Of a stretch of DNA of 64,000 nucleotides, positions 4,728 through 22,108 are shown in pieces. The notes under the pieces are model-generated. The model saw only the letters and a program-made list of their open reading frames with translations, ran no database searches and had not been told where the DNA came from. Where the stretch lies: positions 29,574,001 to 29,638,000 of the forward strand of contig OZ004611.1 of assembly GCA_963924565.1 (NCBI GenBank), in the 5' to 3' direction. The translations under genes were made by a program, and so were the position numbers. How positions within the stretch are numbered: position 1 is the stretch's first letter; each line of letters opens with the position of its first letter. This stretch comes from Ascidiella aspersa (lineage: Eukaryota).

Positions 4728-4900
4728 CAGAGACCTAACATTGGTGGTATACGAGCCTCATCCACGAGTTAACTTTGCAACTTCAATCGGGAAGGCAAAG
4801 AGTGAGCCCCTTCAGCTGGCCAAGTTCCTCGTAAACAGATTATACTTGTTAGGCGAGTTCCCCCGGTTGTCGTGTGGTATCGTAGTCACGTTCCTCGACT

Positions 4901-5086
4901 TGGAGCCCGACGACTCTCTTTTGAGAGCGTGAGGCACAGATACTGGTTTGGAGCCCGACGACTCTCTGTTGAGAGCGTGAGGCGTAGATACTGGTTGGAA
5001 GCCCGACGACTCTCTGTTGAGAGCGTGAGGCCTAGTTGTTACTGGTTGGGAGCTCGACGACTATCTGTTGATAGCGTGAGGCACAG
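4901..5086 (+). repeat. Four ~48-bp hairpin-forming tandem repeats in element 5' UTR (also 14164-14349)
   Basis: GGAGCCCGACGACTCTCTGTTGAGAGCGTGAGGC... x4. Confidence 0.85.
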
Positions 5087-19900: not shown

Positions 19901-22108
19901 GGATGGCCAAAGCTGAAAGTGTCGATGCCGGTGCGATGGCAGCTTTCATATCAGGGGGCAACGTCAGTGGTAACGGGTGCGGAGCGGGCGGAAGTCTGGA
20001 ACGAGACTTGTTTACGTTTGTACGCAAGGCCTCGGAAAGGATCGATGTTCAATTCGTCGCGGGCGCTGACGGGCAGTTTTCTGTGACGTCTGGTGACAAG
20101 ACGTTATCCCCCAGCAACCGGGCAGTATTTACCAGGACCCTCCACGCCTTACAATCAAAGCGTTGGAGGGAAGTGTGGGCCAGTCATCCAGACCAAGGTA
20201 AGACCGTAGGGGCCCACACCCAATACGGTTATTCGAACCACTGGTTGAAGAACCCCGGGGCTCTGACTATTCCAGAGCGCATTTTCGCGATGAAAGCACG
20301 CCTCAACCTCCTTCCTGTCAAGAAGGTTCGGGAACGATTTCACGGGGGACAGTCAGACGTTAGGTGCTGCAGATGCGGCAGTTCGGCCGAGACACTTCCC
20401 CACGTACTCAACCACTGTGTTCCCGTCATGCCCCAAATCCTATCTCGGCACGACGCCATACAGGGGGAAGTGTTGCGCCACGTACCTTCAGGGACCTTCA
20501 CCAAGGTTTCTTGTGACCGAGTTTGCCGGGAGCACGCCGATGCCACGGGTGAGAACCTCCGGCCAGACTTGATTGTCGAGAGCGCCGACAGGTTCTTAGT
20601 CGTGGACTTTGCGTGCCCTTTCGAAAACGGCCAAGTTGCCCTTACCGCTGCTGCGGCCCGTAAGCACCAAAAGTACAGGGAGTTGTGTGGAAACTTGGCC
20701 CGTGTTTCCAAGAAGCGAGTCCTTTTCCACACCTTCATCATCGGCTCCCTGGGCAGCTATGCTCAAGGCAACAATTCCACCCTCAGCGCCTTGGGCATCA
20801 CGGGCCGTCGTATGACGGAGGTAGCCAGAGCATGCTCAGCTCTGGCTATCAAGGGTAGCCACCACGTGTGGCAATCTTGGTGCAGGGGGATTGTTACCAA
20901 ACCTTAAACCATCCTTTGCAAGCGCAGACTGGCACCACACAAACACAAACCGGACGATCACGGCGGCGGGGCATCAACTTAACCGCAAATAAACCAGCTC
21001 ACCAGTACGTTCATCAATCAGCCAACAACCCAGCCCACTCACCACCCCATCACCTCGGAAAACTTCAGCCCTTTGACCCCAGCTCTATCCACGCCCCGCC
21101 GCCAACCCCTCCTCGCACTCCAATGTTAAAGCTGGCCTCCTCCAATCAAAACCCACTCCTGATAGTTTCGCCGAGGTGCTCCCAACTCTTCAACCGCGCG
21201 GCAGCCGGGGACCAACTCTCCAAACACTTTAACGTTCCAACGTTCGTCTATCGTCCCCGGCCAACACCTTCAACAGTTCCGCCCGCCACACCAGTCGAAT
21301 CATCGTCAACGGCAAAAGGGCGGATGCCGCGCGGTCAACACCTCACCTCTTCACACCAATGGGGCCGGCTAGGAAGCCTGCCCCCGAACTGTCTGGCACC
21401 AACACTGGAGCACCTCGGCCCCCCAACCAACACGGAGGCCAGCAGGCCGGCGCACGTCGCCGACCCACTAATTCGCACCATCCCCACCCGGTTTGCACAA
21501 CACTTAGCTTTTAAATCTTTTTTTTTGTCTTAGGTAGCTCGTTTTTAACCGCTTTACCGCCCCAAAATTGCACTTACTAGCAATTAAAGCACTTACCGCA
21601 CTTAAACCTCTTTCAAGTTTTAAATGCACCCCCCCTTTTTTTATATATATGCAAAGTTCCGAACTATTTTTTATATTTACATTGTTTTTAAATATTTTTA
21701 TACCCACACCCCGTGTACTTTTTTCGCCACCCTCACCCCTTTCCACTCACTAGGCACACTTCCAAAATATGTATCTAAATTACACAATACCATACCCGAG
21801 CCCAGTCTGCGCCAGTCCCTCTGTTCCTCCTGCGACGTCTCCTGCAAGCCCTACCATCGGCGGGCCCCACAATTCACTTAGCTTATAACTTAACTAATCT
21901 GGCCCTAACTTTTTTAAATTTACCTTTTTTTCCACAGTAATCATCAAATCTTAACCAAACCAAACCCACAAATTCTATCACCCATCGCCGTTACGGCGGT
22001 GGAGGCCGAGCGTGCAACGCACAATACTTATTGCCGGCGAAGCCTGTTTATATTGTCGTTTTCGTGTTTTATCGCCGTCAACACAATAAACCGGTGTACA
22101 GTCAAAAG
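13991..22108 (+). mobile_element. Full-length Utopia-like retrotransposon in U2 (copy 3)
   Basis: Near-identical to 4728-12820 with the same 5' and 3' junctions. Confidence 0.93.
16192..20907 (+). CDS. Retrotransposon ZnF-RT-RLE protein (1571 aa), intact
   Basis: Same motifs as 6929-11644; only a few amino-acid differences (e.g. F/V, V/I, R/K, D/E). Confidence 0.95.
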   Translation: MNVQPPRRRLRPAVRSRADQGTASSKPTKDAPSQEEAPPLSVTFRGPGDSVFRCGVSGCSMVSAALQSVKRHLASVHGLAVGVLDAACGKCSASFRSRGSLINVRDHYRACGAVAPAAAPRTPRAVCCPVCDSRWPSLVAAKSHHYQKHPGGPSRNNNSFVVAPGLLSPRRSIKQRPFTLNVRYVDAATTYKCPVPACPKGNDGYARVRTLKTHLSTCHKINNVLLRVVCGKCECVVADKAMSLLPASSHFKSCSGSGKPPSIPVPILPPSPANHSVGEDSDSSTVGKVPSLIFYQSKASINTTPPSDSEFLYGHVSPPSGSSHCSSVTLISPIATVAPVLSYADAVRTPSPKLSQIDLVTPPNLPTVGIQNSFSAECVDPYQPSEVSSVINATSPSGPPSFTLLRSWLNTPCTGSTRRVPVEIPQISPSRLARLAVTIRDHYRSRVNVATGVSPDPKPPKASVFLSGETPGREVVKVKEGPPVQGGWTDRPTQQLLVSNLLSAGELDQATSPPEVVEPCVAEATVAGAGEVSAAGNCPSPEPVPGAPERPAVKTRCEWEALLPSSPPVSDQVPVPVVGDVSHRSPVASSENASSSLPVRCNVNDPPLTDPSNDDLRARLAHVIDAHSSPDSFGELEHALEEWTKLAGSVDITRKQRKPRYNRGAQHRATTNRERGHPNKTTIPIKGAAAKGQCLRSAFWRDQRATVRRITDGLKGEVKCGIAPRVIEEKFRADLKAPGAYEHLEPVPSWMRATTGGGDASSGASGGVDSAPISPREVEMVLQSVNTASAAGSDGLSYGFWKALDPKGIVLAELFERCRIARRIPAQWRKSKVTLICKDPGGDLDDVSNWRPISICRNLYKLYAAVLARRLQRWALDGGVISPEQKGFMPVEGTFEHVFVLDSAWVDARQAKKDIFVAWLDVKNAFGSIRHDCIRSIMDELQVPDYLIECVADIYVGNTCVVRTAGGVTNEIPVGRGVRQGCPLSGLVFNLVAEVLVRGVKARAGCGYRFDCAPNVFSQVLAYADDGCLISSSRSQMCEQLKVCEEFAGWAGIRFNPKKCRIMNQVLVGSRRQRDPQPFSLSGEEVKVIGLGEFYRYLGVRQGYLPDTRSNTTLELSAERIKRLFESPLTPHQKLLALKRFELPRLSFILRLRHFPVKELRKVDSTVRRCVRISLRLPTRTCVAFYHTSADSGGLGIPSIAAEGDILAVTQAFKMLTAPDWRVRAVAVGRLESLSKRMAKAESVDAGAMAAFISGGNVSGNGCGAGGSLERDLFTFVRKASERIDVQFVAGADGQFSVTSGDKTLSPSNRAVFTRTLHALQSKRWREVWASHPDQGKTVGAHTQYGYSNHWLKNPGALTIPERIFAMKARLNLLPVKKVRERFHGGQSDVRCCRCGSSAETLPHVLNHCVPVMPQILSRHDAIQGEVLRHVPSGTFTKVSCDRVCREHADATGENLRPDLIVESADRFLVVDFACPFENGQVALTAAAARKHQKYRELCGNLARVSKKRVLFHTFIIGSLGSYAQGNNSTLSALGITGRRMTEVARACSALAIKGSHHVWQSWCRGIVTKP

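Follow-up and report, generated by a model that had tools for sequence, protein, structure and literature searches.

Introduction

In R2-type biochemistry a restriction-like endonuclease (RLE) nicks the bottom strand of the target, and this is followed by target-primed reverse transcription (TPRT). The YURE elements of Ciona were reportedly described by Kojima and Fujiwara in 2004. [quoted passage not shown] In the accessible parts of the same paper, Kojima and Jurka name three YURE elements of Ciona (YURECi, YURE-2_Cis and YURE_CSa), link the ascidian YURE elements to Utopia, and trace Utopia, NeSL and YURE back, as a proposal, to an ancestor specific for U2; the table of Utopia elements given there lists no ascidian. 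Here we describe, in a stretch of 64,000 nucleotides of the Ascidiella aspersa genome (C5:29574001-29638000 of genome G000, from now on the window), an 8.1-kb retrotransposon without long terminal repeats (a non-LTR retrotransposon) that interrupts U2 genes at this site, and that carries a single open reading frame (ORF) of 1571 amino acids (aa) with zinc fingers, a reverse transcriptase (RT), a CCHC motif and an RLE. We consider it probable that this is a young element with intact ORFs, inserted strictly at U2 nt 40/41, likely a member of the ascidian YURE branch and likely still spreading by TPRT.

Results

Copies of the element in the snRNA gene array

Over its first 22.5 kb the window contains the right-hand end of an array with a tandem 1,193-bp unit, in which a U2 and a U1 gene on the plus strand and a U6 gene on the minus strand are found together. 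In window positions, which are used below unless a chromosome coordinate is given, the array covers 1134-22525, and it reaches 68 kb further upstream, so that in the 150 kb mapped upstream of the window it starts at C5:29506094 and as a whole runs to C5:29596525. An empty unit lies at 2325..3517 on the plus strand, with U2 (+) at 2325-2519, U1 (+) at 2754-2918 and U6 (-) at 3051-3157, and it is followed by the next intact U2 (3518-3712, plus strand, Rfam). Empty units are very homogeneous, 30 out of 34 being identical and the remainder showing 1-2 differences. A 100-N gap is present within the array, followed by around 1.5 kb of non-array, exon-like sequence (C5:29526200-29527800), and the assembly is broken there.

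Five U2 genes were detected with Rfam in the window, two of them intact (starting at 2325 and 3518) and three interrupted, which resume at U2 nt 41 at positions 1172, 12821 and 22109; the full-length U2 scores that Rfam gives at 1134, 12783 and 22071 stem from nt 41-195. The occupation of three of five U2 genes, proposed by a sequence-only reading of this DNA, thus holds within the window, but is not a representative figure, as the assembled array contains 41 intact and 5 interrupted U2 genes (5/46). In raw DNA reads of run X17, of which around 1% was sampled and which comes from another individual with a different haplotype and fixed spacer differences, the mean depth was 30.6 for the element versus 1,331-1,407 for the array unit, in such a way that the occupancy falls to 2.2-2.3%. 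These depths correspond to around 5 element copies and around 200 array units per haploid genome, assuming that all the reads are on-genome, and the 46 assembled units indicate that the array has probably collapsed in the assembly. The contigs of run X1 gave a similar ratio (273 for the element versus 9,966 for the unit, or 2.7%), contig depth being a rough guide.

The five insertions of the array are four full-length copies (A, B, D and E) and one 5'-truncated copy (C). Copy D (8,093 bp) occupies 4728..12820 and copy E (8,118 bp) 13991..22108, both on the plus strand, and the two complete copies with nearly identical 1571-aa ORFs that had been recognized from the sequence were confirmed: over 8,093 aligned bases they are set apart by 25 substitutions, as well as by indels, with copy E showing 3 substitutions with respect to copy A, located 51 kb upstream. 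Measured from the first ATG, the ORFs extend over 6929..11644 (copy D) and 16192..20907 (copy E) on the plus strand. In copy D, the ORF is preceded by a 2.2-kb 5' untranslated region (UTR) with internal repeats (4728..6928, +) and followed by a 1.18-kb 3' UTR (11645..12820, +) that ends in GTGTACAGTCAAAAG at the U2 junction. Upstream of copy D, U2 nt 1-17 are retained on the plus strand (4711..4727) behind an intact U2 upstream region, and the same 17 nt precede copy E (13974..13990, +). U2 nt 41-195 follow copies C, D and E on the plus strand (1172..1326, 12821..12975 and 22109..22263, respectively). In the full-length insertions U2 nt 18-40 are therefore lost and replaced by the element, without target-site duplication.

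Copy C enters the window with its 3' part (1..1171, +). Three insertions with the same 3' junction at U2 nt 41 had been claimed, and this was the case for the three; the third one, however, is the 5'-truncated copy, starting 1.9 kb before the window at C5:29572098, and it ends AAAAA/TCTG and not AAAAG/TCTG (the slash marks the junction). Its 5' junction is at U1 nt 27 (C5:29572097/29572098), and 777 bp of array upstream of the U2 site were lost with it. The window also holds a piece that had not been noticed before, a decayed 5' fragment (28847..30591, +) made of U2 upstream region, U2 nt 1-17 and the 5' end of the element, with the same 5' junction, and placed within a decayed long interspersed element (LINE) of the apurinic-type endonuclease (APE) class.

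The element is strictly associated with one site in U2

A genome-wide search with the last 18 bases of the element, allowing 1 mismatch, gave 9 places. In all eight genuine matches the 3' end of the family is followed by U2 from nt 41 onward, and five of these are in the U2 gene array, so that the bulk of the genomic copies with a 3' end are not outside U2. The ninth match (C9:13319302) is an unrelated sequence and was excluded from this count, and two RT fragments without 3' end (C5:29893599 and C2:37169972) fall outside of it. The other three are older, diverged copies located outside the array and also at the U2 site (C5:29762350, C5:29779680 and C1:20621684), one of which reads G/TTTG, one base off. 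The copy at C1:20621684, with an RT 86% identical, has U2 nt 41-190 and then an A-rich tail behind it, which can be explained in two ways, as an insertion that entered a processed U2 pseudogene or as the retro-copy of a read-through RNA.

Comparison with the accessible text and S1 Fig of PMC4640811 showed that nt 41 of the host U2 equals human nt 39, the canonical Utopia site, because stem I of the host is 2 nt longer. The 28 bases around the target site are identical in human U2, as drawn in the same figure.

At the other end, the junction after U2 nt 17 was found in 5/5 complete 5' ends of the mapped array region, and also on one X1 contig. The first 24 nt of the element resemble U2 nt 18-40 (p = 0.010 against 5,000 shuffles). 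A 3' end mimicking U2 nt 1-40 and so rebuilding the U2 gene was also considered, and it was ruled out (p = 0.44). Regarding a ribozyme in the 5' end, Rfam at E values up to 10 over 4600-7000 gave 2 chance matches only, and a descriptor of hepatitis delta virus (HDV)-like ribozymes gave 0 matches in 4651-5200.

Protein domains and relationships

The RT domain of the copy D protein (aa 847-1082, with YADD at 1023; 9467..10174, +) was recognized by Pfam RVT_1 with an E value of 8e-31. It is followed by a C-X2-C-X8-H-X4-C knuckle (aa 1392-1409) and by the RLE motifs RPD..D (1457-1472) and K..KY (1491-1495), encoded together at 11102..11413 on the plus strand. Towards the N-terminus there are five candidate zinc fingers of C2H2/CCHC pattern (aa 54-77, 88-111, 128-149, 193-219 and 230-254; 7088..7690, +), which are pattern matches without Pfam support whose Cys/His columns are partly common to relatives. 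No APE, RNase H or Ulp1 domain was detected in the ORF by Pfam, nor a Myb domain at an E value of 0.1. The best matches among solved structures are R2 proteins (9dou, 9nl2 and 8gh6), with an E value of 2e-64 over the RT-CCHC-RLE core, and a single-sequence AlphaFold model of aa 658-1571 gave no usable fold (mean predicted local distance difference test score, pLDDT, of 33.6).

Querying protein sequences with aa 760-1571 gave 115 matches. The top named ones among them come from Clavelina lepadiformis (47-48%), next to BAC82601.1 of Ciona intestinalis (46% over aa 760-1571), with arthropod proteins trailing behind (at most 37% for all the rows after the top eight). In an IQ-TREE phylogeny of 38 rows, the element, Ciona BAC82601.1 and the Clavelina proteins fall together in a clade of 10 rows (support 100/100), inside a 31-row group (87/88) that includes aphid, tick and nematode Ulp1-bearing proteins, and a FastTree phylogeny of 85 rows agrees with this placement. 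The trees omit the short matches P0071 and P0076 and most L1-like rows, and row L090 of the 38-row tree has frameshift stops. As the RT lies inside the Utopia/NeSL group, the RLE motifs are present and the U2 site is the canonical one, the assignment to an RLE element of the NeSL/Utopia group, made from the sequence, was supported.

We take BAC82601.1 to be YURECi, given that this Ciona protein has an RLE without being R2-like, and that in its series YURECi is the Ciona element other than R2; the accession given for YURECi in the accessible part of PMC2790886 is AB097133. Given its place in the tree, the element is likely a member of the ascidian YURE branch within the Utopia/NeSL group. The U2 of the host is very similar to the U2_sat of Ciona, being near-identical in the 5' 70 nt. 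Five metagenome loci were also considered, a usable 3' end being found in L091 only (4/5 are without one). In L091 the RT is 68% identical, its U2 is 92% identical to that of the host, and the element ends CAGTCAG/TCTG at the same canonical U2 site, so that the strict state exists in at least two hosts of the clade, A. aspersa and the source of L091.

Four other RT matches, at 31% identity and above the L1-like background (C5:10284094, 14071826, 8597382 and 8386117), may represent another RLE family. Further RT elements, whose open frames measure around 1,140-1,220 aa, were detected in clusters at C3:5.22-5.44 Mb, C7:14.76-14.81 Mb and C8:18.23-18.49 Mb, and may be further site-specific families in tandem arrays.

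Age and mobility of the copies

The 1571-aa ORF is open in 4/4 full-length copies, which pairwise show from 3 to 25 substitutions in around 8.1 kb (0.04-0.31%) plus indels, in line with the youth that had been attributed to them. Three sequence types (A/E/C, B and D) can be distinguished, 0.26-0.31% apart. An assembly duplication of one insertion could be suspected from the 100-N gap and the probable collapse of the array (46 versus around 200 units), and it is extremely unlikely, as there are copies that differ by 21-25 substitutions plus indels, and the independent X17 reads cover the whole element at around 5 copies per haploid genome, with several of the same variants being seen.

A more serious alternative is that a U2-specific element is no longer mobile, its copies having been amplified within the array, through unequal crossing-over and conversion, out of one to three old insertions. 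This would agree with the identity of all the complete 5' junctions, with the 3 differences in 8,108 bases between copies A and E, with the homogenised empty units and with an RNA support that is almost nil. However, copy C is only 1 substitution away from A and E and has its own 5' junction and its own 3' A-run, all the full-length ORFs are open, the elements diverge more than their array units, and one contig of run X4 joins the array spacer to element position 7680, a different junction. Variants of the A-run were further detected at the 3' junction in X17 reads (+AA in 10/42, +A in 8/42 and -2 in 3/45). The junctions of copy C, the A-run variants, the X4 junction and the divergence of the copies beyond that of the units favour recent independent insertions over pure array recombination, and we regard an immobile element as distinctly unlikely; present mobility is what we infer from these data.

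Several observations weigh against a young YURE-branch element that still moves. In RNA run X18 (6% sampled) only around 2 reads fell on the element, all of them at the 3' end and none at the 5' junction. The ORF differences are 7 nonsynonymous and 6 synonymous, too few to show selection, identical 5' junctions are equally expected from unequal crossing-over, and older copies or sequencing slippage may explain part of the variation in the A-run. As for the relationships, the tree is without Repbase reference rows for Utopia, R2 and HERO, its rows carry host names and not Repbase families, and no paper tying accession BAC82601.1 to YURECi was found in the literature searched. Run X6 gave nothing on the 5' stretch of the element.

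A putative role of the U2 promoter and the U2 head

The R2-type mechanism was carried over to this element on the strength of the R2 structure alignment. By this analogy, the N-terminal zinc fingers would bind the conserved U2 core, the RLE would nick the bottom strand between U2 nt 40 and 41, and the RT would prime on the 3' end of the element RNA, with a variable A-run before the junction. The anatomy of the insertions suggests that the U2 promoter, which is intact in front of each full-length copy, drives transcription of the element, and because of this U2 nt 1-17 would form the start of its RNA. A cDNA of full length would then anneal to the upstream target through this head, which would result in a single fixed 5' junction, in the loss of U2 nt 18-40, including the branch-point pairing motif, and in the absence of duplication, whereas truncated cDNAs without the head would be joined at points lying further upstream, at the cost of larger deletions. 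With each insertion one U2 gene would be inactivated, a loss presumably tolerable at an occupancy of 2-11% among tens to around 200 units. In favour of such a U2 head are the 5/5 junctions at nt 17, the U2-like first 24 nt and the truncated copy joining elsewhere with a large deletion. The same genome offers a parallel in an APE-type LINE, which at two places follows a U1 promoter and begins at U1 nt 27, and which is also dispersed with its U1 head.

With the same element and activity, the second strand could instead be cut 23 nt upstream (nt 17/18), and the fixed 5' junction would then stem from this cut, with no U2 head being borne by the RNA. A fixed cut likewise yields one junction, and an upstream top-strand cut is invoked by Kojima and Jurka, in the accessible text, for the missing upstream U2 in oomycete Utopia (PMC4640811). 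On the other hand, the truncated copy C is not joined at nt 17, the first 24 nt of the element look like drifted U2 nt 18-40, suggesting that target sequence was carried in the RNA, and the LINE of the same genome takes its U1 head to a dispersed site. We therefore see the upstream cut as unlikely, and prefer the U2 head.

U1-headed elements and other features

The APE-type LINE, L1/Tx1-like, has its start right after U1 nt 27 and is preceded by the U1 promoter both in the window (22499-33300) and at L047 (C5:29779370), and a dispersed near-intact copy at L065 (C1:37772876) shows the U1 head, an A-tail and a target duplication. It is possibly a U1-targeting family, and no 3' junction within a U1 gene was found for it. 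Nested in the window copy is a decayed DNA transposon on the minus strand (around 24930-28520) with a BED-type zinc finger (weak Pfam matches), and at L047:1591-5223 an open frame of 1,210 aa, similar to an LTR-retrotransposon polyprotein, is inserted in the LINE.

A dispersed family of around 380 bp, resembling short interspersed elements (SINEs), has a U1 snRNA head (nt 1-27 plus drifted nt 28-35) and an A-tail, and 3/7 copies with a located tail show target duplications of 14-16 bp. This family accounts for 18/22 non-array loci examined, of 38 found, with examples at L065 (C1:37765900), L070 (C3:22403262), L072 (C4:31585991), L079 (C1:30405747) and L082 (C2:16391729). In L099 and L101 the SINE tail is followed by U1 from around nt 24-28, and in L071 it is followed by a second copy that starts from U1 nt 11, tail junctions that hint at a preference for the 5' region of U1. 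A SINEU family has been described from crocodilians, according to the accessible part of PMC4494074, and no paper on a tunicate U1-headed SINE was found in our literature search.

U1 nt 27, the base to which copy C of the U2 element is joined in the array, is also the one at which the LINE and SINE heads end; candidate origins of this junction are a cut by the LINE endonuclease and a switch of template to an RNA with a U1 head. At the right of the window (48774-64000) there is a segmental repeat of 4.7-6.7 kb, with 92-98% identity and nested short repeats.

Discussion

The ascidian YURE elements known to Kojima and Jurka, likely the nearest described kin of the A. aspersa element among sea squirts, are weakly specific and off-site, most of their targeting of the canonical site having been lost, and a strict canonical-site element in the YURE clade fits the U2-specific YURE ancestor of their proposal, A. 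aspersa and L091 supplying the predicted state. A direct comparison with Ciona YURE thus becomes possible, bearing on the way in which the targeting of an RLE element is relaxed or displaced. With four intact and near-identical ORFs, material is at hand for testing U2 targeting biochemically; no test of this kind was found in the literature covered. As a tool the element is a weak candidate: human U2 matches over the 28 bases, yet an essential gene of low copy number is destroyed with every insertion, which is not so for R2 in ribosomal DNA (rDNA).

Taken together, and only tentatively, the element would be the missing strict, ancestor-type state of the ascidian YURE branch, still active, with five zinc fingers, at the canonical Utopia site, using a borrowed U2 promoter and having its 5' end sealed by the U2 head of its RNA; the same snRNA array would also have spawned the U1-headed LINE and the U1-headed SINE, a kind of SINE for which the literature searched gives no earlier case other than in crocodilians, and the protein could insert at human U2 arrays because the target core is identical over 28 bases in human U2.

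The sequence-only reading had suggested a lineage without described Utopia. This needs correction, as ascidian YURE elements have been described and linked to Utopia, although no strict canonical-site ascidian family is listed in the accessible parts of PMC4640811. A literature search combining ascidian, U2 snRNA and site-specific retrotransposon gave no paper beyond those cited here, with Repbase, Dfam and Fell et al. 2025 being outside its scope. A prior listing of the A. aspersa family in Repbase, Dfam or the Fell et al. 2025 inventory is possible, many NeSL/Utopia elements being contained in the latter according to PMC13580325. Two R2 papers from 2026 mention Utopia without YURE in the parts accessible.

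Among the known systems, Keno, of the Tx1 clade, has an identical U2 site (PMC4640811, accessible text), but uses an apurinic-type endonuclease, whereas the A. aspersa element has an RLE and no APE. With R2 it shares the RT-CCHC-RLE core, which aligns with an E value of 2e-64 and makes R2 the model for the proposed mechanism and for co-transcription from a host promoter; by contrast, its target is U2 and not 28S, it has no Pfam Myb domain, and R2 scores far below the YURE-like proteins.

The likeness to Utopia is closer. As far as the accessible parts of PMC4640811 allow the comparison, both have the same 3' junction, with U2 resuming as TCTGTTCTT, an RLE, a single ORF and a low copy number, and the strict targeting is as in Phytophthora and Nasonia and the absence of duplication as in arthropod Utopia. 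The junction at human nt 39, the C-terminal CCHC and PD..D/ExK RLE without APE, and the position of the RT in the NeSL/Utopia/YURE group agree with a Utopia element. It differs in having five candidate N-terminal zinc fingers instead of the "generally" 1-3, which lowers but does not exclude membership, in its long UTRs (2.2 and 1.2 kb), in keeping U2 nt 1-17 upstream and, by Pfam, in having no RNase H or Ulp1 domain. Its occupancy is 2-11%, whereas disrupted U2 genes outnumber the intact ones in Phytophthora and Nasonia (PMC4640811).

With YURE, finally, the element shares the 100/100 RT clade that contains BAC82601.1, identified by inference with YURECi, and Clavelina, as well as the ZF-RT-CCHC-RLE plan (ZF, zinc fingers). 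The aim is different: strict in A. aspersa, at nt 41 in 8/8 3' ends, and weakly specific in YURE, at nt 62 of a U2-derived satellite. In S1 Fig of PMC4640811, as far as accessible, 3/20 listed copies of YURECi, 3/20 of YURE-2_Cis and 0/5 of YURE_CSa join U2_sat, at CCTGG (nt 62), 21 nt downstream of nt 41. The A. aspersa element is Utopia-like in site and endonuclease, and it likely shares the descent of YURE without its described weak and shifted targeting.

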